DNA from: an uncultured Verrucomicrobia subdivision 3 bacterium
GTDB taxonomy: Bacteria > Verrucomicrobiota > Verrucomicrobiia > Limisphaerales > UBA11358
NCBI GenBank assembly: GCA_903850425.1
Contig: CAINLR010000083.1
Coordinates: 28,444 to 92,443, forward strand
Reading direction: 5' to 3'
Length of the DNA stretch: 64,000 nucleotides
The notes under the pieces were generated by a model. The model saw only the letters and a list, made by a program, of their open reading frames with translations, searched no databases and was not told the DNA's origin. Positions 37,725-54,021 of the stretch are shown here, piece by piece. Both the position numbers and the translations under genes were made by a program. Each line of letters begins with the position of its first letter. The first letter of the stretch is position 1.

Positions 37725-37755
37725 TTGGAGCGGGCGAAGGGAATCGAACCCTCGT
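37725..37755 (-). repeat. att duplication: 3' 31 bp of tRNA-Gly
   Basis: TTGGAGCGGGCGAAGGGAATCGAACCCTCGT is identical to 54021-54051. Confidence 0.95.
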
Positions 37756-37828
37756 TTCCATTCCGGCAGGCGAACACCCATAAAACCCTTTATTATCAGC
37801 ACATAAGAACCTTGTTGACATAGCCTAC

Positions 37829-37851
37829 TGTTAGCATTATTGTTAGCAGTG
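37829..37851 (+). promoter_or_regulatory. Probable integrase arm-type binding sites (left end)
   Basis: Tandem TGTTAGCA (37829-37836) and TTGTTAGCAGTG (37840-37851); the 12-mer recurs at 53936-53947. Confidence 0.6.
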
Positions 37852-37853
37852 TT

Positions 37854-38990
37854 ATGGCAAGCGTTCATAAACGACCGGCTTCAAAATACTGGCACGCGGC
37901 TTTCCGCACTTCCGATGGCCGACTGGTTCTCCGCTCCACCAAATGCCAGGACCGTTCCAAGGCGCTCGCCGCCGCGTTTGAATACGAGCGCGCCGCCAAG
38001 CTCGCGGGGGCGGGCAATCTCGTCGAGGCGCAGGCGCGCAAAATCGTGGCGGACATCATGGAACGGGCTGGCGGAGAAGAAACGCTTCGCGCGCCGACCA
38101 TCAAATACTACTTCGATCAATGGCTGGCGACGAAAAAAGTCCGCAAAGCCGTTTCCACCAATGCTCGTTATGATGGCGCGGTGCAGAACTTCTACGCCTC
38201 GCTGGGCGAACGGGTAAACAAGCCACTCACCTCGTTGACGTCGCACGACGTGGAGCGCTTCATGACAGCCCGGACGGATGAGAACCTCTCCTCATCAACC
38301 GTGGTTTTGAGCGTCAAAGTCATTCGCACCGCTCTGAATCACGCGCGGCGGCAAGGCATGATTCCGACGAATCCGGCCGAAGCCGTGGAACTCCCCAAAG
38401 TGAAGAGTGTTGAGCGCGGCACGTTCACGCCGGAAGAAGTGAAGATTCTCGTGGATACTGCGAAGGACGATTGGAAAACGCTGATACTGCTTGCCTATTA
38501 CACAGGCGCGCGACTTTCCGACTGTTGTCGGATGGCTTGGGCGGATGCGAGTTTGAGCGGCGGAACACTTACCTACACGCAAGCAAAGACAGGCGAGAAA
38601 ATCACCGTGCCACTGCATAGCGAATTGCTGGCGCACTTGGAAGCACTGGCCGGCACCGATAAGCCGGAAGTGTTCATCATGCCACGCATGGCTGGATTGA
38701 AGCCCGGCGGGCGCAATGGACTTTCGCAGACCTTCAAACGCCTCATGCGGAAGGCGGGTCTGGATTTACAGGCGGTGAAAAGCGCGGGCGTGCGACAACT
38801 CTCGCGGCGCACGTTTCATGCGTTACGGCACAGCTTCACCAGCGCGCTGGCGAACCAAGGTGTCAGTGCGGAAGTGCGGATGAAACTCACGGGCCACAAA
38901 ACGGAATCCATCCACCGCGGCTACACCCATCATGAGCTGGAAAAACTCCGCGCCGCCGTGGAGAAACTTCCATCCCTCAATTCAAAATGA
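37854..38990 (+). CDS. Tyrosine recombinase/integrase
   Basis: Catalytic set intact: YTGARLSD (R), TFHALRHSF (HxxR), LTGHK (H), GYTH (Y); N-terminal arm-binding and core-binding regions. Confidence 0.95.
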   Translation: MASVHKRPASKYWHAAFRTSDGRLVLRSTKCQDRSKALAAAFEYERAAKLAGAGNLVEAQARKIVADIMERAGGEETLRAPTIKYYFDQWLATKKVRKAVSTNARYDGAVQNFYASLGERVNKPLTSLTSHDVERFMTARTDENLSSSTVVLSVKVIRTALNHARRQGMIPTNPAEAVELPKVKSVERGTFTPEEVKILVDTAKDDWKTLILLAYYTGARLSDCCRMAWADASLSGGTLTYTQAKTGEKITVPLHSELLAHLEALAGTDKPEVFIMPRMAGLKPGGRNGLSQTFKRLMRKAGLDLQAVKSAGVRQLSRRTFHALRHSFTSALANQGVSAEVRMKLTGHKTESIHRGYTHHELEKLRAAVEKLPSLNSK

Positions 38991-39607
38991 AAAGAAACCC
39001 GCTCGCAGAAGCTTTGTCAGGCATCTGCCCTCCTATTCAACCCGATAGCTGCCCAAAGGTTGAACAACTTACTATGATCGCCGCAACCTTGGTGAGGAAT
39101 ACAAAAGAGGAAACGCCAGATGAATTGGCTGATCGGGCGATGAAACTATGGTTGGCAGCGCGGAAACGAATTTATATTGCAGATAAGGAAGCCGAATTAA
39201 GAAAGCAAGATAACGATTTGCGATTAAGTTCTTTTCGTTGGCCCGCAGAAGCCGACACATTCTTTCCGACCGATGACTATCCAGTAACACGCGACATGTT
39301 TTTGCGGAGAATGCTACCGAAATACAAGAGCCGCACCTGGGACTTGGCGCGGCTTGCAAAATCCTTTGTGCGAGATGTTCTATGCGAAAAGAATGAAGTG
39401 CAGCCATCAAAGGACGAGATTGACGAGCTTTACGGCGGTTGGGCTCCTTGCAAAAATGCGGATCGTGTTGCTGGCGGTCACGGGCATGTCTCCGGCCGTG
39501 CTCACCGAGACCGTTTGGGGTCTATCGCATCCGAAGGCTGGCAGCGACGACGAACCAATCATTCCGCACCGCATCGTTGTGGTAACCACCACCGTCGGGC
39601 GGCGTGA
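38987..39607 (+). CDS. Hypothetical protein coupled to the integrase; C-terminus probably lost (reads into the next gene out of frame)
   Basis: ATGA-type overlap with the integrase stop. The last ~50 codons overlap the CARF gene and are its alternate frame. Confidence 0.45.
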   Translation: MKRNPLAEALSGICPPIQPDSCPKVEQLTMIAATLVRNTKEETPDELADRAMKLWLAARKRIYIADKEAELRKQDNDLRLSSFRWPAEADTFFPTDDYPVTRDMFLRRMLPKYKSRTWDLARLAKSFVRDVLCEKNEVQPSKDEIDELYGGWAPCKNADRVAGGHGHVSGRAHRDRLGSIASEGWQRRRTNHSAPHRCGNHHRRAA

Positions 39608-40619
39608 AATTGAGGGCAGCTTATTCGCGCCACGTCCAGATTTTGCCGGGCTTTCCGCATGGGCTGCGCTGCGGGCGGCACTGGCTGCCGAAGGTCACGA
39701 TCTGAACGGCCGCCTTCGTTTCGGCACCACGCCAGATGACGTGCGCGTGTTCACCACCACGGATCGCGCCACGGGGCGCACGGCCGAGATGGATGACATC
39801 CGCACGCCCGCCGACAACGAAGCAGCGGCCACGTTCATCCTGGAACAGGTGCGCGGCTTGGTTGAGGATCCCGACAAGACGGTCATTGCCTCACTGGCCG
39901 GCGGTCGGAAAACTATGGGGGCATTGCTTTACGCCTGCTTCACCCTGCTCGGCCGGGATACCGACCGGCTCACCCATGTGCTGGTGACCGAACCATTCGA
40001 CCAGTGCCGTGACTTCTTTTTCCCCACGCAGCCGGGCGGAGCGCTGACGCACCGCGATGGTTCCACGCGGCAACCAACCGACGCTGCCATCGTATTGGCA
40101 GATGTTCCGTTCGTGCCGCTGCGTAATCTTTTCCGCCGCGAACTCGGACGTTCGGCCGGCGGCTTTCTGCGACTCATCGAATCCTGTCGTGCCGGCGTGC
40201 GGGAGCGCGTCAGTGATTCCATGCGTTTGACCATAGAGCGGGGGCGACCAGAAATCGAAATCAACGGCTCCCGACTCCGAATGGCCCCCCGCGAACACCT
40301 GTTGCTGCTGTTCTTGGCCAATCGAACCAAGAATGGCGAACCCCCTTTTGCCATGCAGAAAGACGCCCTGGATGCGCTCAATGACTTTCGAGAATCTCTG
40401 CGGGCCGAGGCCCCGACCCGTGATTGGTCGGATTGGCGCCTCACCGACAGCTTGAAATCTCCGATCGCGGACGATCAGGACATCCGCCGCGCCCTCTCCA
40501 GCCTGCGCGAAAAGATTCTTGCGCTCGGCGGTGACGCAGCGGCACTGGCGGCTTGCCTCCCGGAACGCGGGCGGTTCTCTCTGGATCTGCCTGCTCCACT
40601 CCTTTTCCTCAAGCCCTGA
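39456..40619 (+). CDS. CRISPR-associated CARF protein of the NE0113 family with a C-terminal wHTH-like domain
   Basis: RIVLLAVTGMSPAVLTETVWGL, DIRT..DNE, SLAGGRKTMG, DRLTHVLV.EPF are NE0113-family motifs. Start moved to ATG 39456. Confidence 0.85.
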   Translation: MRIVLLAVTGMSPAVLTETVWGLSHPKAGSDDEPIIPHRIVVVTTTVGRREIEGSLFAPRPDFAGLSAWAALRAALAAEGHDLNGRLRFGTTPDDVRVFTTTDRATGRTAEMDDIRTPADNEAAATFILEQVRGLVEDPDKTVIASLAGGRKTMGALLYACFTLLGRDTDRLTHVLVTEPFDQCRDFFFPTQPGGALTHRDGSTRQPTDAAIVLADVPFVPLRNLFRRELGRSAGGFLRLIESCRAGVRERVSDSMRLTIERGRPEIEINGSRLRMAPREHLLLLFLANRTKNGEPPFAMQKDALDALNDFRESLRAEAPTRDWSDWRLTDSLKSPIADDQDIRRALSSLREKILALGGDAAALAACLPERGRFSLDLPAPLLFLKP

Positions 40620-40722
40620 CCCACGTCACTGGACGTCCGAGTTACTACGCGACGAAGCGCCGGCGGCTAGACTGTGCTCGTGAATAGAATACGAGTTACA
40701 AATTGAAAGACGAAAACACGCC

Positions 40723-41754
40723 ATGCCCACCGCCTGCATCAATCAACCCGACTGCCGCGTTCACCTCAAGAGCGAGCGGCTTGAAATTTTCGGCCGTAAC
40801 GAGCAGACGCAGCGCGAGGGCGTGTTGCGTGAGATTCCGTTGCGCGACCTGGAGCGGCTCATCGTCACCGAGTCGGTGCAGATCACGTCCGCCGCGATGG
40901 CCGCCCTGTTGCGGGCCAATATCCCCGTATGTTATCTCGGCTGGAATGGCCGGTTCCTCGGCGGCTTTCTCCCCGCCACCAATCAGCATGGGCTGGCTCG
41001 CCTGCATCAGTATGAGCGCACGCGCGACTCGGCGTTTGGCCTGACCATCGCCGGACGCATCATCGCCGCCAAGCTCTACAACCAACGCCGCATCCTCCAA
41101 CGCCTGCAAGCCAGCCGCCGGAACGAGGAAACTGAGGTGGCCAGGACGCCAATCCAAGGCGCGCTGGACTGGCTCGATGCCTTGTTCGCCCCGTTGAGCC
41201 GTAGCGCTGGGCTAGACGAGTTGCGCGGTTACGAGGGCGCGGCCACCGCCCGGTATTTTCAAGCCTGGGCCAGCTTTCTACCCGCGGACTTCCCTTTCGA
41301 ACGCCGCAGCACGCGCCCGCCGCTAAACCCGGTAAACGCCTGCATCTCTTTTGGAGCCACGTTAATCTACCACGAAACCGTCGCCTTCTGCCACGCTCAC
41401 GGACTGGACCCCGCCCTCGGTTTGCTGCACGCCACCGAAGATGGCCGCTGGTCTCTAGCGCTGGACCTGATGGAACCTTTCCGCCCCGTTCTGGTCGAGG
41501 CGCTGGCGCTGGATCTATTCAGTCACCAAATCCTGAAAGCCGAGTCTTTCGAGGCGCGTGAAGGCGGTGTTTATCTCAGCGAACCCGGCCGCAAAAAGTT
41601 TTTTCTCCAATACGAGCGACGGATGGAACGGCAGTTTCTCTCGGAAGCCGCGGCGCATCGCACCACCTTGCGCCAGCAGTTGGAACAGCAAGCTGTATTG
41701 TTCAAGGCGGCCCTGGAGCAATCAGATCGGTTCCAACCTTTCCTGATGAACTGA
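40723..41754 (+). CDS. cas1: CRISPR-associated endonuclease Cas1
   Basis: LRGYEG.A...YF, R..RPP..PVNA..SFG, GLDP..G.LH, SLALDLMEPFRP. Confidence 0.96.
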   Translation: MPTACINQPDCRVHLKSERLEIFGRNEQTQREGVLREIPLRDLERLIVTESVQITSAAMAALLRANIPVCYLGWNGRFLGGFLPATNQHGLARLHQYERTRDSAFGLTIAGRIIAAKLYNQRRILQRLQASRRNEETEVARTPIQGALDWLDALFAPLSRSAGLDELRGYEGAATARYFQAWASFLPADFPFERRSTRPPLNPVNACISFGATLIYHETVAFCHAHGLDPALGLLHATEDGRWSLALDLMEPFRPVLVEALALDLFSHQILKAESFEAREGGVYLSEPGRKKFFLQYERRMERQFLSEAAAHRTTLRQQLEQQAVLFKAALEQSDRFQPFLMN

Positions 41755-41757
41755 CTT

Positions 41758-42102
41758 ATGGATGATTGGTGGCAACAAGCCTTCCCGCTGGTGCCCTATC
41801 AAAAGAAACCGCCCGGAGAAACCGAGATGTTAATACTGGTGGCCTACGACATTGCCGATCCAAAGCGCCTGGCCCGGGTGGCCAGTATTTGCGAGGACTA
41901 TGGCGTAAGGGTGCAATACAGCATCTTCGAGTGCCGGCTGGACGAGGATCACTTCACTGACTTTTGGCTCAAACTGCTCGAGGAAATCGAGGTGCAGGAG
42001 GATCGGGTGGTAGCCTATAAGATTGACGCACGATCCGCCAAGGAAACGTTGACCGCGGGCACGATGGTCTGCTCAGAGAAAGTCCTGTGCTATCTGGTAT
42101 GA
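41758..42102 (+). CDS. cas2: CRISPR-associated protein Cas2
   Basis: LVAYDIAD.KRL.RV...C..YG.RVQYSIFEC. Confidence 0.96.
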   Translation: MDDWWQQAFPLVPYQKKPPGETEMLILVAYDIADPKRLARVASICEDYGVRVQYSIFECRLDEDHFTDFWLKLLEEIEVQEDRVVAYKIDARSAKETLTAGTMVCSEKVLCYLV

Positions 42103-42321
42103 AGCGCCATTCTTCCAGCTGCCATCGTGTCAGGTCGGGAACCCAGCGACCGCAAAAAGTCGGGTCTGCTGACCTGAAACGAAACTGGCGTATCGACAGA
42201 CGCTTTGGCATTACTTTGGTTGCGTCGGGAAGCGCTGATCCGCGCCATTCGTGGCCGGAGGAGGTGGTCCCGACCTGGAAGTCCCTTAAAGCTTTGACTG
42301 GCAATCAGTTTAGGAGCCAGC
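42103..42321 (+). promoter_or_regulatory. CRISPR leader
   Basis: Non-coding segment between cas2 and the first repeat. Confidence 0.65.
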
Positions 42322-42736
42322 GCAGCCGATGGGCTGAATGCCGAAAGGCAATGGAGACCTTGTCGCTGGCGCTATTGATCGCGCGCAACACCAAAGGCAG
42401 CCGATGGGCTGAATGCCGAAAGGCAATGGAGACACGGTCGCGGAAAGTTTGACGGCAGCTTGCTTGATAGCGCAGCCGATGGGCTGAATGCCGAAAGGCA
42501 ATGGAGACGGTGGGCCTGCAATCGCCATAGTCGAGCCTCGTGGTTGGCAGCCGATGGGCTGAATGCCGAAAGGCAATGGAGACATGCCCATCGTGAGTTC
42601 TGGAGCGAACAAGCGAGCGAACAGGCAGCCGATGGGCTGAATGCCGAAAGGCAATGGAGACAAAGCCAGCCGCTTTCAAATCAACGAAAGCGCGAGCTTG
42701 CAGCCGATGGGCTGAATGCCGAAAGGCAATGGAGAC
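42322..42736 (+). CRISPR. CRISPR array: 6 identical 37-bp repeats, 5 complete spacers (38, 38, 38, 41, 38 bp) and a truncated 6th spacer
   Basis: Repeat GCAGCCGATGGGCTGAATGCCGAAAGGCAATGGAGAC starts at 42322, 42397, 42472, 42547, 42625 and 42700. Orientation inferred from the leader position and the ...ATGGAGAC 3' end. Confidence 0.97.
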
Positions 42737-42767
42737 TCCGGCACAAGCCAGAATCCCGGCACACGGT

Positions 42768-42956
42768 AAGCGCCTTGCCGATGAGCGCGTCCGCGTGGCC
42801 CTGCACCTTAAGCCAGGCGCGCAAATACTTTGGTTCGATGTTGCGGTTGCCTTCGCGCACTTCCCAGTTGCCGAGATAACCGTAGCCCAGCGTCTCGCGG
42901 AACAGCTTCACCACCCGCTGCTGCGTCTTGCGTTCTTTTTGGCCTATATTGTCCAT
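42768..42956 (-). pseudogene. hsdR: Type I restriction subunit HsdR, 5' stub (~63 codons) truncated against the CRISPR array
   Basis: MDNIGQKERKTQQRVVKLFRETLGYGYLGNWEVREGNRNIE..LRAWL..QGHADALIGKAL resembles an HsdR N-terminus; the frame then reads antisense CRISPR spacer/repeat. Confidence 0.8.
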
Positions 42957-42957
42957 A

Positions 42958-43512
42958 TTATCTTTGGGTCGCCATTTTTCCCATGATTGGCGCACAGGCT
43001 TTTGCAAAGTCCAGAAGTTGTTGTGAAACCTCATCAAGAAACTCGTCATCCTTGTGCATTCGCCACAGCACCTTAGGCTCACGCCAATCAGCAGCAGGCG
43101 AGTGCATTTCCACCATCGCCTCCCACCATGCCATTGAACGGGCGGATGGAAAGCGCTCCTGAACAGCGGCCAATAATTCCGGGTAAAACTCTCTTTTCCT
43201 GATCATATCCTCGTCCCGCCACAACCCAAAAACCATCTTCTGGCCATATTTTACGCACTCCAAACTGACGGAATACCCTTCCGGCCAACTTGGTTTCCAC
43301 ACGAAGAATTTACCATATGCATCAGTGAAAAAAGTGTTATAAGGCTCAAGCTGCCACCCCTTTAATTTCTTACCCATTTCCGCACCTAGCCTATCCAGGA
43401 AGGCTGAGACAATTTGTCCTCTAACTATCGGCCACGCCTCGCCGACGGCGCCGGCGATACCTAGGTTGCGCTCATTCTTTAGGATGTAATCGTGAATGGA
43501 TTCACTTTTCAT
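42958..43512 (-). CDS. Hypothetical protein, probable partner or C-terminal domain of the upstream PD-(D/E)XK nuclease
   Basis: Overlaps the upstream gene's stop; aromatic-rich W.P.W and WWE motifs; no catalytic motif seen. Confidence 0.55.
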   Translation of the reverse strand: MKSESIHDYILKNERNLGIAGAVGEAWPIVRGQIVSAFLDRLGAEMGKKLKGWQLEPYNTFFTDAYGKFFVWKPSWPEGYSVSLECVKYGQKMVFGLWRDEDMIRKREFYPELLAAVQERFPSARSMAWWEAMVEMHSPAADWREPKVLWRMHKDDEFLDEVSQQLLDFAKACAPIMGKMATQR

Positions 43513-44332
43513 AATCTTTAGTCTCCGAGCTGTAAATTGGTTCGCGCTGATATTCGGCTTCGATATACGCCATGAGGTCGGACAGGAAAGCGTTAATCCT
43601 TTGCGCAGCGCACTGTTGGCGGCAACTATCTAGCCACTGCCGCAGTTCGTCATGGTAGCTCCAACAGTGCAGCTTGCCACTGGCCGTGAGCGTTGCTATT
43701 TCCGACTGACTGACGGACTCCGGCGGTCGGCCATTCGGTGACAAGTAAATCAATGCCGCCTGGATGGAACCGCTTCGCGTGCAATGGTGAAGGTGTTCCA
43801 AATAATCTTTCACCTGATCCAGTTGTTCGGCGGAATCAATTTTGTTTTCGATGGCCAGCACCGTCCCGGCCTCGACCAAAATGTCCATGCGGCGGCGGCT
43901 ATTGAGGATTCTGTCCGTCGAAGCCTCACGCCGCACGCTGGCGTGCCGGGTTTGCTGCCCGGTCGCCTCCAGACCCAGTTGAATCAACATCAGGCGCAGG
44001 AACAAGTTGCCCTGACCGTGGGTGCCCTTCGGGTTGAGCAAGAAGGCCAGCACGTCAGACAGCCGGTTTTCGTCCGGCTCGATGAAATGAAAGACGTTGA
44101 AGCCGCTGGCCAGCTTTTTGTCGAGGCGGAGCCGTGACTTTTCAGACGCGGCGAGGCTGTGGCCGACGACACGGAAAAAGCTATCCAGTTGAATCCGGTT
44201 GACAGCATCGGCGGGGGCTTGCTCAACTCGATCCAGGCGGGAGCTGACATCGGCGAAGAACTGTTCCAGCGCGGCCCGGTTCACGGTTTGGGGCGGCGAG
44301 CCACGAGTGACTTTGCCGTTGGTGGTCCTCAA
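43502..44332 (-). CDS. PD-(D/E)XK nuclease (PDDEXK_4-like)
   Basis: ENRLSDVLAFLLNP.GTHGQG.LFL..., RRMDILV...IENKI.S.EQ.DQ..DY. Start probably TTG 44332, overlapping the DUF1643 stop. Confidence 0.82.
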   Translation of the reverse strand: MRTTNGKVTRGSPPQTVNRAALEQFFADVSSRLDRVEQAPADAVNRIQLDSFFRVVGHSLAASEKSRLRLDKKLASGFNVFHFIEPDENRLSDVLAFLLNPKGTHGQGNLFLRLMLIQLGLEATGQQTRHASVRREASTDRILNSRRRMDILVEAGTVLAIENKIDSAEQLDQVKDYLEHLHHCTRSGSIQAALIYLSPNGRPPESVSQSEIATLTASGKLHCWSYHDELRQWLDSCRQQCAAQRINAFLSDLMAYIEAEYQREPIYSSETKDYEK

Positions 44333-44883
44333 CGCCGTGCTCCTTTGTAGGGTTTCGGAAGAAGGTCGCCCGGTAGGTAGAGCGGGTGAACTGGCGTGAT
44401 GCCGTCTTTGGCTAATCTCAGGCAGCACAGCCCACCGTGATGATGTAGTGCGTTGGCAACGGCTTGGCCGCGCTCTTTCAGTTGTTTCGGGGGTGCGCCA
44501 TAAGCAAGCACAACGGTTTTGGCTCGACGCGCCATGCTCTCAATAGATTTGTCATTCTCTGGCCCGACGGGGTCATCAACGCCCAGTAGTCTGGTTTTGT
44601 CCGTGGCGCGGTAGGCGTGGACATTCCCGATCAGTTGGCCGCCGTAGCCCCAGGCGCGGGCAAAATTTCCGGTTTTACGCAACGTGGGATCACTGTAATC
44701 CAAACAGGCCACGCTGGGATTCATGAGAATCCACAGGACCAGCGGCTTGCTCTGATCCCAAATCTCGGCCAACTCGTAACGGTATTGGCCGCATTCTGAA
44801 AATCGGGCTGTGACGACGGAATCGGCGGGCCAAGCGGGGCGAGATTTACCACCAGGATCGTGTTTCGCGCTGGATGTGCTCAT
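44329..44883 (-). CDS. DUF1643 family protein
   Basis: A.FS.CG.YRY.L...W, LMNPS.A....DPT.RK...FAR.WGYG.....N..AYRATD, HPLYLP. An upstream in-frame ATG at 44982 adds a degenerate hsdS-tail sequence. Confidence 0.88.
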   Translation of the reverse strand: MSTSSAKHDPGGKSRPAWPADSVVTARFSECGQYRYELAEIWDQSKPLVLWILMNPSVACLDYSDPTLRKTGNFARAWGYGGQLIGNVHAYRATDKTRLLGVDDPVGPENDKSIESMARRAKTVVLAYGAPPKQLKERGQAVANALHHHGGLCCLRLAKDGITPVHPLYLPGDLLPKPYKGARR

Positions 44884-44920
44884 GGATTGGTGCATTGGGG
44901 TCTGGCCGACCGCGTCCATG

Positions 44921-44970
44921 CCCGCCAGCAATTCCTGCATGAAGCCCGGCGTGCGGGTGTGCGGCTTGGC
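44921..44970 (-). repeat. Degenerate 4th copy of the hsdS 3' end
   Basis: Reads RAAKPHTRTPGFMQELLAG versus HsdS RRAKTRALKQGMMQELLTG; includes the identical 15-mer ATGCAGGAATTGCTG. Confidence 0.65.
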
Positions 44971-44978
44971 GGCTCTGC

Positions 44979-46370
44979 TCATACGGTTTTGCTCCGGCTT
45001 GCGATTACCTTCAGCCTGGTTTTCCCCACAACGGTCAGGCGATATTGCTGGAGACGGCTGCTGGGTTTTTCCGGCAAGGTCATTTCAACCAAGCCTCCTT
45101 CGAGGGCCGGACGCAGATAGTTGGCCCGGAATGTTGGACGGTGTTTCAGCCCCAGCCGCTTCTGAATTTCGGACGGGGCCAATGACCGACCACCCACCAC
45201 GATGATCAGCATCTCGACTGGGTCGGCGACTGGGTCGGCGACTGGGTCGGTTGGCGTGCCCTTCGGGACCGCCGGATAGGCGAACTCCACCCACAGCCCG
45301 GCTGGCTCGTAGCGCAGCACGGGCACTGGCGTCCCGGCGGCGCGACACGCCTCCATGATCCGTTCGATCCCGCGTCCCCATGACTCGATCATGCCCGCCC
45401 GGAAGAAGGCGTTGGCCACATCGGGGTTGAACGGGTGCGAAGGATGTTTGCCCTTCAATTTGGCCACGGTCCAGGCAGGCGGCAGCTCCCCCGGATTCCA
45501 CAGCATCAGCTTGTCCGCATAGACGCTGATCTGGATGGGTGCCCCGGCGGAATAATCCTTGTGGATGACGGCGTTGAGCAGCGCCTCGCGCAGCGCGGCC
45601 TCGGGCACCGGGAACGTCTCAAACCGCTGGAGTCCCTGATAGGTCAACCCCGCCTTGAGATACTTCGTCAGCAGCAGGTCCATCGTCTTTTCCACCTGCG
45701 CGAAGAGGTCGCCATGAATCTCGTCGTGATACAGCAAATCCGTGTTCGTGCGGAAGAAGCCAATCTTCACAAACGCCGCCGTGACGAACCGCTCGGGATC
45801 GGGATGAAACAGCAGCACCGCCGCGCGCTTGAGGTGGGCGGCATCCCGCAGCCGCAGCTTTTCAATCAGGCCGGGCGCGGATTCCCGGAGGATCGCGGAA
45901 TCCAGCCGCTGACTCTGCCGCGCCAGTTTGCGGAAGCGGTCAATGGCCGCTTTGGACAAATCCTTGACCGCCACCTGTGGCACCGGCACGCCGTCCCAGT
46001 GCTTGCCCTGTTTGCGCAGGAGAAACTTGTCCAGCGCCGCGCCCTTCAACTCCTGCTTGGTGCTGCCGCTGCGGAGATGATACTCGCCCTTGTAGCTCAC
46101 GGGATACGGATAAGGCTCCACCACGATTTCCAGATATTCCTTGCCGGCTTCCTCGCGCAAGTTCACGCCCACCATGATGCCGAGAATGTCTCGCACCTTG
46201 TTGGGAATATCTTCCATGAGCCGCGCCGAGTCCGGCACGCCGACGACCACGCCCCGGTCGTTCCGGCCAATGTGCAGGACGCCGCCCTCGGCATTGGCAA
46301 AGCCGCAAATCCAGCGCAGATACTCGTCGCGCCACGACTCCTTCCACTCGATCTGTTGGTTCTCTTTCAT
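44979..46370 (-). CDS. Schlafen/AlbA_2 DNA-binding domain + HATPase_c_4 + C-terminal wHTH protein
   Basis: ENQQIEWKESW...ICGFANAEGG.L.IG.ND.G.VVG; ALREALLNAV.HKDY; NP.VANAF...G.IE.WG.G; C-terminal PS...Q.YRLT. Confidence 0.88.
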   Translation of the reverse strand: MKENQQIEWKESWRDEYLRWICGFANAEGGVLHIGRNDRGVVVGVPDSARLMEDIPNKVRDILGIMVGVNLREEAGKEYLEIVVEPYPYPVSYKGEYHLRSGSTKQELKGAALDKFLLRKQGKHWDGVPVPQVAVKDLSKAAIDRFRKLARQSQRLDSAILRESAPGLIEKLRLRDAAHLKRAAVLLFHPDPERFVTAAFVKIGFFRTNTDLLYHDEIHGDLFAQVEKTMDLLLTKYLKAGLTYQGLQRFETFPVPEAALREALLNAVIHKDYSAGAPIQISVYADKLMLWNPGELPPAWTVAKLKGKHPSHPFNPDVANAFFRAGMIESWGRGIERIMEACRAAGTPVPVLRYEPAGLWVEFAYPAVPKGTPTDPVADPVADPVEMLIIVVGGRSLAPSEIQKRLGLKHRPTFRANYLRPALEGGLVEMTLPEKPSSRLQQYRLTVVGKTRLKVIASRSKTV

Positions 46371-46402
46371 ACGAGGCGGGTTCGCCCGGTCAGCAATTCC
46401 TG
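46367..46402 (-). repeat. 3rd copy of the hsdS 3' end (QELLTGRTRLV*)
   Basis: CAGGAATTGCTGACCGGGCGAACCCGCCTCGTATGA; its TGA overlaps the ATG of the AlbA_2 gene. Confidence 0.88.
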
Positions 46403-47113
46403 TTATTTCACCGGCGACCTAAAGGCAAGTGCCACGAGTATCTTCACATTGTTCGATTGCGGCACCGGTAACAATGGCACCACAGCATCAATATATGGGT
46501 TTACGAAACCCGCGAAATGGTCGGCAATCTCGTTTTTGAACAACTCCTCATGGCGATATATCCGTTTTCTCTGCTTCAGATATTCGTGGATTTTTTCATA
46601 CTGGTTCTCGATTTCATAGTCCACGTCATCTTCCAAATCATCCTCGTAGGTTTGATAGACGACGGACCGTGCGTGCGCTATTCCGTTGCGAAAATTAAAA
46701 AGAAGCCTTACACCGTCAATCAACGGTTTGTTATCTAACGCTTCTTCAAGTGGCCTTCCAAGCGTCAAAGTAAACAATTCAGGAAAATCTTTGAATGTCG
46801 CCCTTGAAACCTTTTTAAGAAAAGCGTGGTCTAATCTGCCCTCGAACGTGTCGTGAGGGGCAAATCTACTTCCAATGATAAATGAATTGAGGCACTCCAC
46901 TAGAAAACCTTCAAGACATGCAGCGGAAAGCAGAACTATGGTTGCGTTGATGCCGCGATTTCTTTCATGGAACTCGATCCGTTCGGCCTGAGTTTTTACC
47001 TTGTTGCGATCCTGTTGCAACCATTTGACCATTGAAGGAAAGGTCGTCCAAATGGCTGTCTCGTTATAAGAGGTTACTTTCTTATGTGAGGCGTCTGGCT
47101 TTTTTGCGGTCAT
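46403..47113 (-). CDS. HEPN-like protein (putative RNase toxin/defence effector), AT-rich
   Basis: Helical A.I.L.SAA.LEGF... region and an R-x4-H motif (FRNGIAH). Confidence 0.6.
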   Translation of the reverse strand: MTAKKPDASHKKVTSYNETAIWTTFPSMVKWLQQDRNKVKTQAERIEFHERNRGINATIVLLSAACLEGFLVECLNSFIIGSRFAPHDTFEGRLDHAFLKKVSRATFKDFPELFTLTLGRPLEEALDNKPLIDGVRLLFNFRNGIAHARSVVYQTYEDDLEDDVDYEIENQYEKIHEYLKQRKRIYRHEELFKNEIADHFAGFVNPYIDAVVPLLPVPQSNNVKILVALAFRSPVK

Positions 47114-47116
47114 AAT

Positions 47117-47221
47117 TTAGATCAACCGTGTTCTTCCAGTCAGCAATTCCTGCATCATGCTCTGCTTGAGGGCGCGGGTCTTGGCGCGGCGCTGCTCCAA
47201 CGCCGCCAGCTCCATCCCCAT
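47117..47221 (-). CDS. 34-aa mini-ORF formed by the 2nd copy of the hsdS 3' end (MGMELAALEQRRAKTRALKQSMMQELLTGRTRLI)
   Basis: 47139-47213 is 74/75 identical to 47963-48037 in hsdS. ATG at 47221/47215; stop 3 nt before the HEPN ATG. Confidence 0.6.
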   Translation of the reverse strand: MGMELAALEQRRAKTRALKQSMMQELLTGRTRLI

Positions 47222-47269
47222 ATACAAACTTTGTTTTGTTTTAGAATAAAAGATGTGCATGGCAAGTAA

Positions 47270-47944
47270 TCATAAATGCGAAAGTTTGTTTCGATAGGCG
47301 TCCAAGTTGGGGATTTTTGCTGGAGTATGCTTTTGCAAATTCTCTAACGTGGTCAGCACGAAAAGCACAACAAAATGGGTGTCTAAATCGTTCGTTGTCT
47401 GATTTAGTTCGCCAGTCGTTGCCAGCATGGCTCCGTGGGTAAAATTGCAATATGTCCGATAAACTACTTCATAAAGCGGTAACATCTTCGCTTCTATGGC
47501 TGCATCTCGGGTAGTTACCTTCTTCTCCTGAAACGGGTAATTTGGATCAAAACTTAGAAATAACTGCCTGTAATCGCTAAGAGCTTTAGCTACGTCCGCT
47601 GGCATTGTTGGTTGGAGGCGGGGAAGTTTCTTCTCCTCCATCAATTCCGAGTAAAGTTTGCGGAACAGGAATCCTTGCTTTTGCATCACGGCACAGGCCG
47701 AGAGCAGCGCTTCCAAGATCGGGCGCACTAAAAGCTTCGAAGCCTCGATCATCTTCGATCGTCGCAGGACTATGAAACCGCCAGCCGCCTGGTTTACCGA
47801 GACAGCGGCCCACACCAAATACCTAGCCTCAAGGGTTTTTACGGATTTGATTTCAACAGAATTGATTGCGTCCGAGAGGATGCTTTGAAGCTCGCATAGC
47901 AATTCCAAAAATTTCATTTCCTTCGAGGAGTTTATTGTGCTCAT
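47270..47944 (-). CDS. Hypothetical AT-rich protein, DUF5677-like
   Basis: A..L.R...E and Y..VY...C..THG patterns; ATG overlaps the hsdS stop (ATGA). Confidence 0.5.
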   Translation of the reverse strand: MSTINSSKEMKFLELLCELQSILSDAINSVEIKSVKTLEARYLVWAAVSVNQAAGGFIVLRRSKMIEASKLLVRPILEALLSACAVMQKQGFLFRKLYSELMEEKKLPRLQPTMPADVAKALSDYRQLFLSFDPNYPFQEKKVTTRDAAIEAKMLPLYEVVYRTYCNFTHGAMLATTGELNQTTNDLDTHFVVLFVLTTLENLQKHTPAKIPNLDAYRNKLSHL

Positions 47945-49098
47945 ACCAGTCTGATCCTCCCGGTCAGCAATTCCTGCATCATGCCCTGCTTGAGGGCGCG
48001 GGTCTTGGCGCGGCGCTGCTCCAACGCCGCCAGCTCCGCGTCCATGTCCGTCAGCACCTCGGCGATGGCGGTTTGTTCGGCGATGGTAGCCCAGCTAATC
48101 TTGAGAGGCATTAAATCAACGGCGTGAATATGCGGCTGCGCTCCGCCAGTTTGAGCCTTGTAAATCTTTTCTTGGTTTAGCAGAAGCTGGAAATAAACAA
48201 ACTCGACGGAGTAACCGCTACCCTCGCTGATCGTTGAGCAATCCGAAGCGAAGATGGGTGTATCAAAGAACGCTACATAACCTGCGCTCGCACCAGACGC
48301 ACTCACCGTGATCGTCTTTCCAGTGCGATTCGGCTTATTGTGGAAGTAGGCCGGTTTCATACCGCCAGCAATTACAGGAACAGGCCCGTCAATCGCGTCC
48401 TTTTCTGTGATGAGCTGTCCTTTCGTGATCTTAACCACGTCGCCCAGCCGCTTCGACTCCCACTCGCCGTGGAAGCCGGGGAGGCGGGTTTGGCCGGTGA
48501 GGAGCTGCTGCATGGCGGCCTGTTTGAGGTCGCGCTTCTTGGCGATGAGCTGGTCCAGCGCGCCGAGCAGCGCATCCACATCGCTCAACGCCCCCGCGAT
48601 GGCGCGTTGTTCTGGAAGCGGCGGCAATGGAAGTTCCAGCGCCTTGAAGAAAGGAAGCCCAATCGTCTTTATCGTATTACCGACCCCAATGCGCTCGAAC
48701 TCGGTTTTCTGTGACTGAAGCCAGTAATAGAGGAAGTGATTGCTCAAGCGCGGGCCACATTGCCAAGCTATGAAGTGTTGGCTCACCGCCATCACATCTC
48801 CTGTGATCGCGCTTTTTCCGAGTCTTGAGCCATCCCGTGATAAAACCACGGTCCCGGCTGGATATTCGACCGTCGAAGAATTTGCAACCCCAGCCGGTGT
48901 TATGTGTTCCGAAGTATCTGAAATAAAGAGATTATCAAGATCGTCTGAATCCTTCAAAGAGAGCCACTTGATTTGGCCGTTCCAATAATTAGGATTAGCC
49001 TTATCTGGTGTGTGGCCGCTGCCTCGCTTTGCCACGGAGTCCAGTAAAGCAGCATTCCACGCTGGGTGGGCTGCATCCGCGTTCGCCTTATCCCTCAT
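47941..49098 (-). CDS. hsdS: Type I R-M specificity subunit
   Basis: Two TRDs separated by PLPPLPEQRAIA..LSDVDALL..LDQLIAKKRDLKQAAMQQLLTG; C-terminal EQTAIAEVL.DMD.EL..LE....K...LKQGMMQELLTG. ATGA overlap with hsdM. Confidence 0.95.
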   Translation of the reverse strand: MRDKANADAAHPAWNAALLDSVAKRGSGHTPDKANPNYWNGQIKWLSLKDSDDLDNLFISDTSEHITPAGVANSSTVEYPAGTVVLSRDGSRLGKSAITGDVMAVSQHFIAWQCGPRLSNHFLYYWLQSQKTEFERIGVGNTIKTIGLPFFKALELPLPPLPEQRAIAGALSDVDALLGALDQLIAKKRDLKQAAMQQLLTGQTRLPGFHGEWESKRLGDVVKITKGQLITEKDAIDGPVPVIAGGMKPAYFHNKPNRTGKTITVSASGASAGYVAFFDTPIFASDCSTISEGSGYSVEFVYFQLLLNQEKIYKAQTGGAQPHIHAVDLMPLKISWATIAEQTAIAEVLTDMDAELAALEQRRAKTRALKQGMMQELLTGRIRLV

Positions 49099-51554
49099 CT
49101 CCATAACGCTCCCATTTTCTTGAGGTGTTCGTCCACGCGGGCGGCGAGCGTCGCCGCTTCGCCGGTGAACTGCGGCAGAGGGGTGGCATAGCGTTCGGCC
49201 AGTTGGCGGATGCGCCCGGTAAGCGTCTGCGACACGCGATCCAGTTCGCCCTGCACGGCGGCGGCAATCGTGGCCAGCCATTTATCATCCACCACGAGCG
49301 TCTTGATGTCGTCCTCGGTCAGCTTGCCATACTGCGCCGCGACCTTGAGCAGCAACGCTTCCTGCGCGTCGTTGACCTTCGCGCTGGTCGCGGCTGCTTT
49401 TTCGGCGAGGGCGAGGTAGTCGTTCAGCACCTTGCGCTCGTCCGCCGCGTCGGCGTCGCCCTTGATGTCTTTCAGCCGCGCCGCGACGGATGCCTTGGTG
49501 AGCTTGTCTTTGTCGTTCTTGGCCGCTTCCAGCAAGGCGTCCTCGCCGCCGTGTTCTTCGGCCATCTCTTCCAATGCCTGCTCGCTGGCTGCAACTTCGG
49601 CTTCCAGTTTCTCAATGGCTGCCTGCTCGGCGGCAAAGTAGCGCGCGATGACCAGCGCGGTCGGGATCAACTCGGCTTTATACTTCATTTTGCCGACGGT
49701 GAAATCGGGCTTCTCCTTCGTTTTCTTTTCCTTGTCCTCGATGATGAGCCGGGGCTTGGCGGCTTCGCGCCAGCCGTCGCTGACGATCATGTAAACGTCG
49801 TCCTGCATGGTTTCGGCCCAGTAGTCCATGAGGTGTTGATACACGTCGTAGGCGTCGAGTAGCCGGGCTTTCTCAAACGTGGCCAGCAAATCTTCGGAGA
49901 GTGTTTCGATGAGCGCCTTGGGCTTGCCGCCTTTGGCTATGCCTTTCAAACGCGGGACGTTGGCGGCTTTCCATTTCGCAAACAGTTTCGTGGCGGACTC
50001 GTTGTAAGCGGTGAACTCGGCATGTCCGAAGATGGCGGCTTTGACTTCGCCGATGGGCACGCGGAGCTGGGTGTAGCCGGGGCGGTCGGCTTTTTTGAAC
50101 AGCGTGGCGCGCACGGCGGGGAACACCTGCCAGAAGTTTTCCAACGCATCAATGTCGCGGTTCGGGATGCCGCCGCGCAGGTGGCCGTCAATGTCCTGCA
50201 AATCCTCCGGCTCGGTGCTGTCAATGTAGCGCGGGAGGTTGAGGTTGAAATCGTTCTTCGCGTCGCTGATTTCCGTGAGCGACACCATGCGCGAGTAGCG
50301 GGGGATTTCCGCCAGCCGCGTGAAGGCGTCCACGATCTTGTGAATGTCCTGCGCGCGGAGGCGGTTCTTGTTGCCGTCTTTGATGAACGCCTTGGAGGCA
50401 TCAACCATGAAGATGCCCTTGCGGGCGCTGGCGTTTTCCTTGTCCAGCACGATGATGCACGCCGGGATGCCCGTGCCGTAAAACAGATTCGCCGGCAGGC
50501 CGATGATGGCCTTGATGTAACCGCGCGACACGATCTCGCGGCGGATGGCCGCCTCCGCGCCGCCCCGGAACAGCACGCCATGCGGCAGAATGACCGCACC
50601 TTTGCCGCTGCTTTTGAGAGAGGCGAGGATGTGCAGCAGGAAAGCGTAGTCGCCATTCTTCTGCGGCGGGATGCCAAAGGCGAAGCGTTTGAACAGGTCG
50701 TTGGCCGGGTCGAAGCCGTTGCTCCACGCCTTGGTGGAAAATGGCGGATTGGCGACGGCGAAATCGAACGTCTTGAGCGCGCCGGTCTTGGCGTCCTTGA
50801 AGTGCGGCGTGGACAGCGTGTTGTCCTGCCAGATTTCCGCCGTGGGGCAATCGTGCAGGATCATGTTCATCCGCGCGAGCGCCTTGGTGGCGTTGTCCAT
50901 TTCCTGCCCGTAAAGCGCGAGGTCGTGGCCGGTCGCGCCCTTGGCTTCGTCGTGCGCCTTGAGCAGCAGCGAGCCGGAGCCGCACGTCGGATCGTAAATG
51001 GTCTGGCCCGCGCTGGTCGCGCTGCCGATGCCGATGACGCGCGCCATGATGCGCGAGACTTCCGCCGGGGTGTAAAACTGGCCTTTGCTCTTGCCGGACT
51101 CGGTGGCGAAGTGCCGCATCAGATATTCGTAGGCGTCGCCCAGCAGGTCGTCGCCCTCGGCGCGATTCTGGCCGAAGTCCAATTCCTGAAAGATGCTGAC
51201 CAGTTTGGTCAACCGCGCCACCATGTCCTGACCCTTGCCGAGCTTGTCGGCGTCGTTGAAGTCGGCCACGTCAATCACACCCTTGAGGTCGTTTGCCTCG
51301 GCGAGCCGGGCGATGATCTTGTTGATCTTGTCGCCAATCTCCTTGTCGCCCTTGAGCGCCACCATGTCCGCAAAACTTCCGCCCGTGGGCACGTCGAGCA
51401 GATAACCCTTCTGGCTCGCGGCCTTGTCCGACACATATTTCATGAACAGCAGGACGAGGACGTAATCCTTGTATTGCGAGGCGTCCATGCCGCCGCGCAG
51501 TTCGTCGCACGATTGCCAGAGGGAGGAATACAATTCTGATTTTTTGATGGGCAT
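49095..51554 (-). CDS. hsdM: Type I R-M methyltransferase subunit (long form)
   Basis: LW.SCDELRGGMDASQYKDY, GQFYTP.EVS, DPTCGSGSLL, ANPPF, GVLFRG. Confidence 0.97.
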   Translation of the reverse strand: MPIKKSELYSSLWQSCDELRGGMDASQYKDYVLVLLFMKYVSDKAASQKGYLLDVPTGGSFADMVALKGDKEIGDKINKIIARLAEANDLKGVIDVADFNDADKLGKGQDMVARLTKLVSIFQELDFGQNRAEGDDLLGDAYEYLMRHFATESGKSKGQFYTPAEVSRIMARVIGIGSATSAGQTIYDPTCGSGSLLLKAHDEAKGATGHDLALYGQEMDNATKALARMNMILHDCPTAEIWQDNTLSTPHFKDAKTGALKTFDFAVANPPFSTKAWSNGFDPANDLFKRFAFGIPPQKNGDYAFLLHILASLKSSGKGAVILPHGVLFRGGAEAAIRREIVSRGYIKAIIGLPANLFYGTGIPACIIVLDKENASARKGIFMVDASKAFIKDGNKNRLRAQDIHKIVDAFTRLAEIPRYSRMVSLTEISDAKNDFNLNLPRYIDSTEPEDLQDIDGHLRGGIPNRDIDALENFWQVFPAVRATLFKKADRPGYTQLRVPIGEVKAAIFGHAEFTAYNESATKLFAKWKAANVPRLKGIAKGGKPKALIETLSEDLLATFEKARLLDAYDVYQHLMDYWAETMQDDVYMIVSDGWREAAKPRLIIEDKEKKTKEKPDFTVGKMKYKAELIPTALVIARYFAAEQAAIEKLEAEVAASEQALEEMAEEHGGEDALLEAAKNDKDKLTKASVAARLKDIKGDADAADERKVLNDYLALAEKAAATSAKVNDAQEALLLKVAAQYGKLTEDDIKTLVVDDKWLATIAAAVQGELDRVSQTLTGRIRQLAERYATPLPQFTGEAATLAARVDEHLKKMGALWR

Positions 51555-51557
51555 GGG

Positions 51558-52514
51558 TCAGGATAAATTTGGCCAGAGTTGATGCAGGCGATGATTCAAT
51601 TGAGCGTCGCGCAACAGCGTAAGATTGGACTTCGGGCGTAGCAAGGCTGCGGCGTGGCCCAATGTCTTGCGCACCTGTGGGAGCGTTTTTCGGCGAAGCA
51701 CCTTGGGCGTTTCCAAGAAGATGATGGAACTGCGGTTGCCCTTACTGCTCGTGTAGTTCTTGATGTAAAGCACGCGCTCCGGCGGCGAGACCATGAAGCG
51801 ACGGGGCGTTTCCTTTAGCACCTGCACCACGAGGTCGCCAGATTTCACCCGACGGGCAAAGACCGCGCCCGTCCATGAGAAATTCTCGACCTCGAAACGC
51901 CGTGGCGATAAAAGCCGACGACGGGCAATCGGCCGGCCCTGATGCTCGGCGAACGCAGCCTCTATGTCTCGTTCGCTCCTGGAAAGTTGCACAACCCAAG
52001 TTCGCGCGTGACCTGGGGCGAGCTTTGCGGCCTTACGGGTCTTACGAGCGCCGCCAACGATCTTTGGCGGACGGTAAATCTTCGCCATCTGCTGCGCATA
52101 TTCCAGGGTGACGTGTTCTCCCAGCAGTGATTCAACAAACTTGGCCGACTGCCGCGCCAGCGCCGGGTGGGTGCCATGCACGACCGCCTCGACCAACGTG
52201 TTGGCGGAGGATTGGGAGACATTGGTGGAGCCAACAAAGACGGATGCACCAACGACAAACACTTTGGCGTGCAAATTAGTGACCGAGTGGACTTCGACCC
52301 CGCGCCGCAGCAGCACCAGCACCTCGCTGGGGCAAACGTGCCCCGCCTGCACTGAGCCTTCGCTAAAATCAATCACCAGCACGCTGCCAGCGCGCAGCGG
52401 CAGGAGTTTGCTGGCCGACCGCCCGAAGTAAGCGACCGCGACGCGACATTTGCCCGGCGATTTCCGCACGGCGCGCGTGATGGCTTTCCAAGGTTCGTCG
52501 GTCAGCAGTTTCAT
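51558..52514 (-). CDS. Phospholipase-D-family (HKD) nuclease-like protein
   Basis: VAVAYFG, NLHAKVFV......VGSTNVS motif; located 3 nt upstream of hsdM. Confidence 0.75.
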   Translation of the reverse strand: MKLLTDEPWKAITRAVRKSPGKCRVAVAYFGRSASKLLPLRAGSVLVIDFSEGSVQAGHVCPSEVLVLLRRGVEVHSVTNLHAKVFVVGASVFVGSTNVSQSSANTLVEAVVHGTHPALARQSAKFVESLLGEHVTLEYAQQMAKIYRPPKIVGGARKTRKAAKLAPGHARTWVVQLSRSERDIEAAFAEHQGRPIARRRLLSPRRFEVENFSWTGAVFARRVKSGDLVVQVLKETPRRFMVSPPERVLYIKNYTSSKGNRSSIIFLETPKVLRRKTLPQVRKTLGHAAALLRPKSNLTLLRDAQLNHRLHQLWPNLS

Positions 52515-52515
52515 G

Positions 52516-53430: not shown

Positions 53431-53935
53431 AATTAATTATTCCCGTGTGCTGTGCGCGGAAGATTATTTCAAATTGTTCCAAACGCAAATACGAAAGAGG
53501 CTGCCTGCTCGATGGACGCGCGGCGGCATCTGAAGGGCGCACGGGAAAAGGCGGCGGATGGACTTGCAAACATTTCTGAGTCGCCGCATGGTGTTCGTGT
53601 GAACTGGAAGCCGGGTTTGTTGGGCTCCAAATCCCAAACGGAAGCGCGGCATCCAATTGCAGGCGACACGACGAACAAGAATGAAAACCGACTACCCGCC
53701 AACTGGTCCGCGCCGCCGCAGTGAATATTTTGCCGATGGCAGTGCCCTGGTAGCGGTCGAAGGGGGAGGCATCCTGTTGATTGAGAGCCAGCCCCAATAC
53801 AAAACTCCCCAACTAAAAGGCAAACGAGTGAAGCCAAATCGCCGAAACCAGCCGCACGTGCTGGCCGCGCGGAACAATAAATTTTCTCAAAATCCCCATA
53901 AACAACAGCCGTAAACGTAGCCGAAATAAGTGGAC

Positions 53936-53960
53936 TTGTTAGCAGTGGACGTTAGCAGTG
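53936..53960 (+). promoter_or_regulatory. Probable integrase arm-type binding sites (right end)
   Basis: TTGTTAGCAGTG (53936-53947) and GTTAGCAGTG (53951-53960) match the left-end motifs. Confidence 0.6.
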
Positions 53961-54021
53961 AGGCGTTTTGAATCCGACTAAAACCGTTAACGACCTTGTT
54001 ACCATTGTCTAAAAACGATAT

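Follow-up and report, generated by a model that had tools for sequence, protein, structure and literature searches.

A Verrucomicrobial regulator and adaptation module of type III-B character on a tRNA-Gly island: probably a stranded part of a CRISPR locus

Introduction

Among the described systems that come closest to the one presented here are the Csa3 proteins. In Sulfolobales, Csa3a and Csa3b bind cyclic tetra-adenylate (cA4) or an analogue and control the adaptation genes (PMC8699464, PMC7480081). Together with Csa3 of Thermus they represent factors built from a CARF domain and a winged helix-turn-helix (wHTH), which bind cA4 and control adaptation as well as cas genes (PMC8699464, PMC8844856, PMC7480081). 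Both the Csa3 and the NE0113 proteins were predicted to regulate transcription (Makarova et al., 2014; PMC4012209). Here we analyze a protein of the NE0113 family that is encoded next to cas1, cas2 and a CRISPR array, in a stretch of 64,000 nucleotides (nt) from contig C83 (CAINLR010000083.1, positions 28,444 to 92,443) of an uncultured Verrucomicrobia subdivision 3 bacterium (assembly GCA_903850425.1). This whole stretch is called the window throughout, and all coordinates refer to it. We consider these genes to be, with reasonable probability, the regulator and adaptation half of a Verrucomicrobial type III-B locus that was recently transferred, stayed intact and is now stranded as cargo of an island with no interference partner.

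Like Csa3, the module protein combines a CARF domain with a C-terminal winged helix and is encoded beside adaptation genes, with a candidate operator near cas1. However, Csa3 (6wxq) aligns to it over the CARF domain alone (residues 2-219), while the winged helix of the module protein is of the OmpR/PhoB type. Furthermore, Csa3 belongs to type I-A systems of archaea, whereas the family of the module protein accompanies bacterial type III-B systems and a candidate tandem site of 10-bp period. The module protein thus seems best described as an analogue of Csa3, and membership is not claimed. Further likenesses concern the CARF domain. The Crn1 ring nucleases comprise Sso2081, Sis0455 and, as a long form composed of CARF and helix-turn-helix (HTH), Sis0811 (PMC9638899). 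They share with the module protein the CARF fold, a serine after strand 1 and an Arg-Lys pair, and the combination of CARF and HTH resembles the long form; however, the module protein is much larger and has a different C-terminal domain. Cad1, whose CARF domain was placed in the CARF5 clade (PMC12669630), provides the best structural match to the CARF domain of the module, and Cad1-like genes occur in the same loci of relatives. Yet Cad1 has a deaminase domain, which the module protein lacks, a predicted DNA-binding output domain standing in its place. By family, the module protein is a full-length member of TIGR02584/PF09623 (NCBIfam name 'ring nuclease Csm6') with all invariant residues. For this family the PDB holds no solved structure, and we found no published assay. 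As a distinction, the module copy has no type III effector in the assembly and sits on an integrative island.

The module as a whole can be compared with about 160 related type III-B loci of Verrucomicrobiota, which share the same CARF protein, Cas1, Cas2, leader motifs and 3' half of the repeat. In contrast to these, the module locus and the whole assembly lack Cmr1-6 and all effectors activated by cyclic oligoadenylate (cOA). It is also known that mobile elements can carry CRISPR components, examples being type IV systems on plasmids, CRISPR-associated transposons and phage mini-arrays (PMC11656645). Like the module, these are partial CRISPR cargo whose missing functions would be needed in trans. 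However, they keep an effector or an array and lack adaptation, which they borrow from the host, while the module is the mirror image, with adaptation genes, regulator and array but no effector. The parts belong to known families; it is their arrangement that is uncommon in the compared sample.

Composition and integrity of the module

The module is tightly packed, with all of its parts on the plus strand. It starts with the gene of the 387-aa CARF protein (39456-40619), which matches TIGR02584 with 190.7 bits (cut-off 80.65) and PF09623 with 93.4 bits (cut-off 23; E 2e-26). Then follow cas1 (40723-41754; PF01867, E 3e-84), cas2 (41758-42102; PF09827, E 1e-20), a leader of 219 nt (42103-42321) and a CRISPR array (42322-42736) of six identical 37-nt repeats and five spacers. 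A first-pass annotation, made from the letters of the window alone, had proposed the very same parts, and profile hidden Markov model (HMM) matches and repeat positions place all of them where it had put them.

Judged by conserved columns, the proteins show no trace of erosion. In an alignment with 41 relatives, 67 columns of Cas1 reach a conservation of 93% or more, and the module copy retains 67 of 67, among them E171, H236, D248 and E251. Cas2 keeps 31 of 31 conserved columns, including D31, and the CARF protein every invariant column of its family alignment, including S12, R151 and K152. Taken together with the leader and the repeat handle described below, all parts of the module are intact, with no decay.

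Comparison with related type III-B loci

The comparison covers 160 loci, half of them taken from species genomes (80) and half from metagenomes (80); their open reading frames (ORFs) were clustered and the recurrent clusters annotated. The metagenomic loci stem from the matches listed by a scan with an alignment as query, and among these they comprise CARF relatives of at most 60% identity as well as short fragments; a metagenome scan queried with the single CARF protein gave no match. More than 1000 full-length homologs of the CARF protein exist, the named ones almost all from Verrucomicrobiota and with 55-79% identity. The closest metagenomic homologs are 75-79% identical. Identity to relatives amounts to 72-79% for the CARF protein and reaches 76% for Cas1, and the closest partial CARF relative (84% identical, L059) has cmr genes upstream.

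The gene order in Verrucomicrobiota is canonical: Cas10/Cmr2-Cmr3-Cmr4-Cmr5-Cmr6-Cmr1 are followed by variable effectors of the cOA type, the NE0113 CARF gene, cas1, cas2 and the array. The variable effectors include a TIGR02710 CARF protein, Card1/Can2-like CARF nucleases and a Cad1-like CARF-adenosine deaminase with a NUDIX partner. Of 79 loci whose sequence reaches 8 kb or more upstream of CARF, 72 contain at least three cmr families, which bears out the earlier statement that NE0113 CARF proteins accompany type III systems. Directly downstream of the CARF gene, cas1 was found in 79 of the 110 loci with enough sequence on that side. Only two other loci (L074 and L078) show CARF, cas1, cas2 and array without cmr genes over at least 8 kb, and both of these genomes have Cmr2 on another contig.

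Given this order in the relatives, what the window holds is the 3' portion of a type III-B locus, which breaks off upstream of the CARF gene, just after the point where the effector genes would end. The place of effector and cmr genes is taken by an integrase gene and an unassignable ORF of 206 aa. The module may also be cut downstream, inside the array. With regard to its origin, Cmr2 was found in only 2 of 100 sampled members of the genus, and such a sporadic occurrence fits acquisition by transfer. The island is also not found beside the conserved gene of the CCA-adding enzyme in genus relatives, which points the same way, though no clean empty site was seen there.

Some peculiarities of the related loci may be recorded here. 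The Cad1-like CARF-adenosine deaminase (~635 aa) is regularly followed by a ~210-aa protein with weak NUDIX similarity, so that both form a recurrent pair (for example L049:6054-8590 and the cluster c14/c17 loci L039, L057, L065 and L095). In L022 a gene for an HNH endonuclease (275 aa; 11361-12188) is located between the CARF gene and cas1, and L033 and L026 have an extra ORF at this position.

Predicted function of the CARF protein and its candidate operator

Pfam revealed no second domain beyond CARF in the module protein and no enzymatic effector domain. A sequence profile search of the PDB led to marginal matches to the DNA-binding domain of ArlR only (E ~0.8) and to no relative at the sequence level. 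An AlphaFold2 model was built from an alignment of 27 sequences (mean pLDDT 89). Residues 1-235 best match the CARF domain of Cad1 (9c68; Z 14.4, root mean square deviation 3.3 over 160 residues, 21% identity), with the ring nuclease Sso2081 (7ygh; Z 13.1), Csm6, Can2, Csa3 (6wxq; Z 10.2) and Card1 also among the best matches. Residues 253-387 match more than 20 DNA-binding domains of the OmpR/PhoB family with Z 7-9, each across the whole domain, among them GlnR (8.9), CadC (8.3), VanR (8.2) and VicR (8.2). The 'orphan CARF-wHTH' protein of the first-pass annotation is consistent with this model, which predicts a C-terminal winged helix of the OmpR/PhoB type, and with the lack of a partner in this genome.

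Within the CARF domain, the invariant S12 lies in the motif TGMSP after strand 1 and R151-K152 in AGGRKTM. By motif, though not by residue-level superposition, they occupy the positions of S11 and R105-K106 in Crn1, which bind and cleave cA4, whereas Card1 has the same Ser and Arg-Lys residues and does not cleave cA4 (PMC9638899). Thus cOA binding by the module protein is likely on the basis of these motifs, which are not sufficient for cleavage.

DNA-binding domains of the OmpR/PhoB type usually bind tandem repeats about 10 bp apart, and a candidate site of this kind is found in the module. The tandem CACGTCA-CTG-GACGTCC (40622-40638, plus strand; 10-bp period) starts 3 nt past the stop codon of the CARF gene, 85 nt ahead of the ATG of cas1, and is the one copy kept here. 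Its family consensus is (G/C)ACGTCC-N3-GACGTC(C/T). Against a background that amounts to 0.025 per 265 nt in the remainder of the loci searched, the tandem motif is about 13-fold enriched between -15 and +250 nt of the CARF stop codon (46 of 144 related loci) and about 8-fold within 300 nt upstream of the CARF start (36 of 155). In the variant of L062, GACATCC-CCG-GACATCC, the direct repeat is kept and the pairing is lost. The candidate site would suit a factor with control over both cas1-cas2 and the gene that encodes it. The motif was also encountered inside Cmr3 ORFs (8 matches) and between Cmr3 and Cmr4 (4 matches), where it may serve regulation from within or merely reflect a coincidence of the coding sequence. 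The window further contains GACGAG-ATT-GACGAG (39414-39430), which precedes the start codon of the CARF gene by some 30 nt and is a tandem of 9-bp period that resembles the GACGTC site but differs in sequence and spacing.

Since a winged helix of the OmpR/PhoB type meets a conserved flanking site, a transcription factor is favored over a mobile ring nuclease, and the evidence points to a cOA-sensing transcription factor for adaptation genes. In a full system, the Cmr complex would make cOA upon meeting its target RNA, and the CARF domain of the NE0113 protein would bind it. The winged helix, located on the flanking tandem GACGTC sites, would then alter transcription of its own gene and of cas1-cas2. 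Spacer acquisition would thereby be coupled to an ongoing infection, as with the Csa3 regulators in Sulfolobales, and the CARF protein may in addition cleave the signal. We infer ligand binding, binding at the tandem site and the direction of regulation as well as the present inactivity of the module, while the identity and integrity of its parts, the boundaries of the island, the gene context in relatives and the negative outcome of the effector searches in the assembly are shown directly by the data. In the genome at hand neither a ligand source nor a complex using CRISPR RNA (crRNA) was found, so that the module should be incapable of interference and is most likely stranded: it would do no more than transcribe its array and, perhaps, take up new spacers, and would be carried along with the other defence genes of the island.

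The ring nuclease idea deserves closer consideration, as the first-pass annotation had offered a mobile protein that dampens type III signalling of the host. The CARF protein would then serve the island as counter-defence, acting as a ring nuclease or as a cOA sponge. The serine and the Arg-Lys pair (S12, R151-K152) at catalytic motif positions of Crn1 would suit such a role, as would the Crn1 structures among the best fold matches and the fact that viral ring nucleases are known anti-CRISPRs. However, Card1 demonstrates that these residues do not entail cleavage, no Cas10 that could signal was found in the host, and the other cargo of the island is defence and not anti-defence. Moreover, complete type III-B loci constantly include this protein as a component on the side of the host, and it possesses a predicted DNA-binding domain together with a flanking DNA site that is conserved. 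As it would reside in a host without type III signalling, counter-defence fits poorly and we regard it as very improbable.

Search for an interference partner

The assembly of this lake Verrucomicrobium is a metagenome-assembled genome (MAG) of 6.89 Mb in 197 contigs, 96% complete and with 3.7% contamination. Throughout this assembly, no match was obtained to Cmr2 or Csm1 (TIGR02577/TIGR02578), to the repeat-associated mysterious proteins (RAMPs; PF03787) or, by HMM, to Cas6. A tblastn search (E 1e-4) of the assembly with all Cmr1-6, Card1/Can2-like, TIGR02710 and Cad1-like ORFs from the 80 genome loci likewise returned nothing. A SMODS-/CBASS-type cyclase, as an alternative ligand source, is also absent from the genome. 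The same Cmr2 HMM detects Cmr2 of this clade in other genomes with up to 234 bits, and the negative result is consequently meaningful for the assembled DNA. Thus, of a complete type III-B system the adaptation module and an array of the clade type are present, while Cmr2, RAMPs and Cmr5 were not found, and the NE0113 gene has no cmr or cas10 gene beside it, neither in the locus nor elsewhere in the assembly. The term 'adaptation-only' is therefore appropriate, since cas6, cas10 and RAMP genes are lacking from island and assembly alike. The cas3 and cas4 genes, which the first-pass annotation had also missed in the island, exist in an unrelated type I-C-like locus on another contig (C12), and no complete cognate cas operon was detected nearby or anywhere in the assembly.

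The absence of Cas6 was equally part of the earlier claim. It holds, but it is normal in this clade and has little meaning, since Cas6 (PF01881) is also unmatched in five genomes of the clade with full loci and arrays of 48-109 repeats. Among the type III-B loci with large arrays from genomes without PF01881 (in the range L017-L096) are, for example, L019, L020, L026, L032 and L065. The invariant GCC-GAAA-GGC hairpin and 8-nt tail of the repeat nevertheless imply, as a sequence feature, a dedicated processing activity, for which a divergent Cas6, one of the Cmr subunits or an RNase of the host are possible candidates.

Besides the module, the genome contains a type I-C-like system on C12 with cas3 and cas4, whose array continues on C41, and two Cas9 systems, one on C28 and one on C176 with an array continuing on C81. 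The contig-end arrays of C12 and C41 have the same 37-nt type I-C-like repeat and the repeat of C81 is the reverse complement of that of the Cas9 locus on C176, so that both pairs of contigs are probably joined through their arrays. With three further cas loci and their arrays at hand, one might suspect that the type I-C-like or the Cas9 systems use the crRNAs of the module. However, their repeats are unrelated to the island repeat in sequence and structure, and their Cas1 proteins are only ~31-33% identical to that of the island. Processing by Cas5c and processing that depends on a tracrRNA are repeat-specific. With unrelated repeats, it is unlikely in the extreme that the type I-C or type II systems use the array, and this reading was rejected. 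A chromosomal effector that receives its spacers in trans from the module, as had been proposed, does not hold for this assembly either, because there is no type III effector and the repeats of all other arrays are unrelated.

Since no effector was found in the assembled genome, the module is most likely an intact but stranded fragment. Of the three options left by the first-pass annotation, the remnant or fragment is best supported because the module corresponds to the 3' half of a conserved type III-B locus; the other two, trans supply and dampening of host signalling, are disfavored. Several points weigh against this conclusion, however. A MAG of 197 contigs, with the completeness and contamination given above, may lack a Cmr locus, as CRISPR regions often fail in assembly or binning, and of five other genomes in which CARF-cas1 loci are cmr-less, three encode Cmr2 on a different contig. 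A module under selection would also be expected to show such perfect conservation of its three proteins, its leader and its repeats. As for the candidate operator, the GACGTC half-site is palindromic and two copies could form a hairpin instead of a protein site, and no sigma-70-like promoter was detected by a scan that may not suit this phylum.

Some of these points amount to an explanation of their own, namely a working split locus, in which the Cmr effector would lie on unassembled or unbinned DNA while the island would provide adaptation, regulation and crRNAs in trans. Precedents exist: in three genomes (G041, G042 and G043) CARF, cas1, cas2 and array are at least 4-10 kb away from any cmr gene and Cmr2 is encoded on another contig, and intact module parts would be in line with such an arrangement. 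On the other hand, HMM and family-specific tblastn searches of the 6.89 Mb recover neither a Cmr gene or a fragment of one nor a CARF effector, the repeat is confined to C83, and type III-B systems are rare in the genus. A split locus is thus unlikely, although an unassembled or unbinned effector locus, for which the genomes of L074 and L078 give the example, is the main caveat to calling the module an orphan.

Repeats, leader and spacers

The repeats of the array, GCAGCCGATGGGCTGAATGCCGAAAGGCAATGGAGAC, start at 42322, 42397, 42472, 42547, 42625 and 42700 and enclose spacers of 38, 38, 38, 41 and 38 nt. Folded as RNA, the repeat is predicted to form two hairpins, after which 8 nt remain unpaired as a tail, AUGGAGAC (-14.8 kcal/mol, z -3.5). 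Its 3' half, GCCGAAAGGCAATGGAGAC, is conserved across the clade and the copy of the module is identical to the clade consensus. In ~40 related arrays from across the phylum the 5' half varies, whereas the common 3' half GCCGAAAGGCA(A/T/C)TGG(A/T)GAC is exactly matched by the module, and the 3' hairpin with its 8-nt handle (GCCGAAAGGCA-ATGGAGAC) is nearly invariant. The last 70 nt of the leader contain position-specific motifs common to 37 related leaders (TCCCGACCTGG ~50 nt upstream, CTT/CCTT, CAAT and TTA-A), all of which are kept here.

A genome-wide search for the same repeat, as the first-pass annotation had suggested, located the 37-nt repeat on C83 only. The recent activity that had been concluded from the identity of the repeats is a different matter. 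No degenerate trailer repeat follows the sixth copy, and even this last repeat is perfect, as would be the case in a cut-off array just as in a young one; hence repeat identity is no proof of recent activity.

The proposed comparison of the spacers with viral and plasmid sequences yielded no target. Against INPHARED phages and PLSDB plasmids the best match had an E value of 0.4, and a scan of IMG/VR for exact 24-25-mers of each spacer gave 0 matches, an exact-word scan being one that mismatched targets escape. Within the own genome, blastn-short returned chance matches of 12-20 nt only, and there was no match in the 160 related loci. Conversely, none of 1661 spacers from the arrays of relatives targets this genome or the island.

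The island and its integration site

The earlier description of the surroundings as a mobile island is supported by an integrase and a repeat at a tRNA gene. The only tRNA gene of the window, tRNA-Gly(TCC) (54022-54095, minus strand; ARAGORN), contains attR and forms the right boundary. Its last 35-36 nt recur at 37725-37760 as a displaced copy of the tRNA-Gly 3' end, the attL of the left boundary, which makes up a 36-nt direct repeat that is 94% identical to 54021-54056. Next to it, a tyrosine integrase is encoded (37854-38990, plus strand; PF00589, E 5.5e-25, plus a SAM-like N-domain). An integrase together with a repeated tRNA 3' end is what elements integrated at the 3' end of tRNA genes usually leave as their mark, and thus the island spans ~37725-54056 (16.3 kb), with the direct repeats 16,296 nt apart. 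With 57.5% its G+C content equals that of the genome (58.1%).

In relatives from the genus, the gene of the CCA-adding enzyme and the left flank are conserved, with no island beside them. A clean empty site (attB) was not recovered there, as tRNA-Gly and the right flank are not adjacent to the CCA gene. Two of these relatives (G022 and G011) have 65% identical integrases, which start with the same tRNA fragment and carry different cargo.

The other genes of the island are of the defence type and all located on the minus strand. They encode a PD-(D/E)XK protein, DUF1643, a Schlafen/AlbA_2-ATPase, a HEPN protein, DUF5677, HsdS, HsdM, a PLD-like protein and a hydrolase. While hsdS and hsdM are present, no hsdR was seen in the island, and the PLD-like gene follows hsdM. 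The 3' conserved region of hsdS recurs after each inserted defence gene (44921-48571), with copies at 44921-44971, 46367-46402 and 47133-47213, the last of which is 96% identical to 47957-48037.

Between integrase and CARF gene lies the ORF of 206 aa (38987-39607, plus strand), whose 3' end overlaps the CARF start by 152 nt and whose final 50 codons run out of frame across the start of the CARF gene. It has no match in Pfam or NCBIfam and no tblastn similarity in any of the 160 related loci that would mark it as a remnant of a relative's gene. This putative gene could encode an island protein such as an excision factor, or it could be no gene at all.

The location on an island allows for a further explanation, in which the module would be a portable, self-regulating cartridge for memory and adaptation. 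It would be idle in its present host, and its crRNAs would be used by the resident Verrucomicrobial Cmr complex of a new one, protecting island and host or targeting rival elements. Any such complex could use them, as a handle that is conserved phylum-wide should make the crRNAs of the module acceptable to foreign Cmr complexes, despite the variable 5' half of the repeat. The variable cargo that the integrase family carries in relatives and the known CRISPR parts of mobile elements that rely on host components in trans (PMC11656645) agree with this idea. However, none of the 160 related CARF loci has a homolog of the island integrase, which includes the other cmr-less loci with at least 8 kb upstream; the few annotated neighbors there are not mobile-element genes, and no integrase or transposase was seen among the annotated genes upstream of four cmr-less loci. 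Recurrent carriage of the module on mobile elements is thus not seen in related loci. Furthermore, no spacer target was found, a single instance is known, and there is no sign of the island moving between type III-B hosts. Such a cartridge is accordingly doubtful, and the wider notion that immune memory and its acquisition move between hosts separately from the effector appears just as doubtful to us.

Conclusion

Taken together, we favor a stranded fragment of a type III-B locus. Ranked by our confidence, an effector that was missed comes first among the alternatives, followed by the cartridge, by counter-defence and finally by recruitment of the array to the type I-C or type II systems of the genome. 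As far as this one locus is concerned, the stranded fragment is the mundane and likeliest answer. Were the module functional, immune memory could spread on its own, apart from interference.

The comparative result is firmer and, at the level of the family, may be more useful than the single locus. A family of more than 1000 members, with a CARF domain and a predicted winged helix of the OmpR type, is encoded between effector genes and cas1 and comes with a candidate operator. In addition, this clade appears to run large arrays with no recognizable Cas6, and one may ask by what route it produces crRNAs. The family thus gives a testable model of spacer acquisition that would be controlled by cOA in bacteria.

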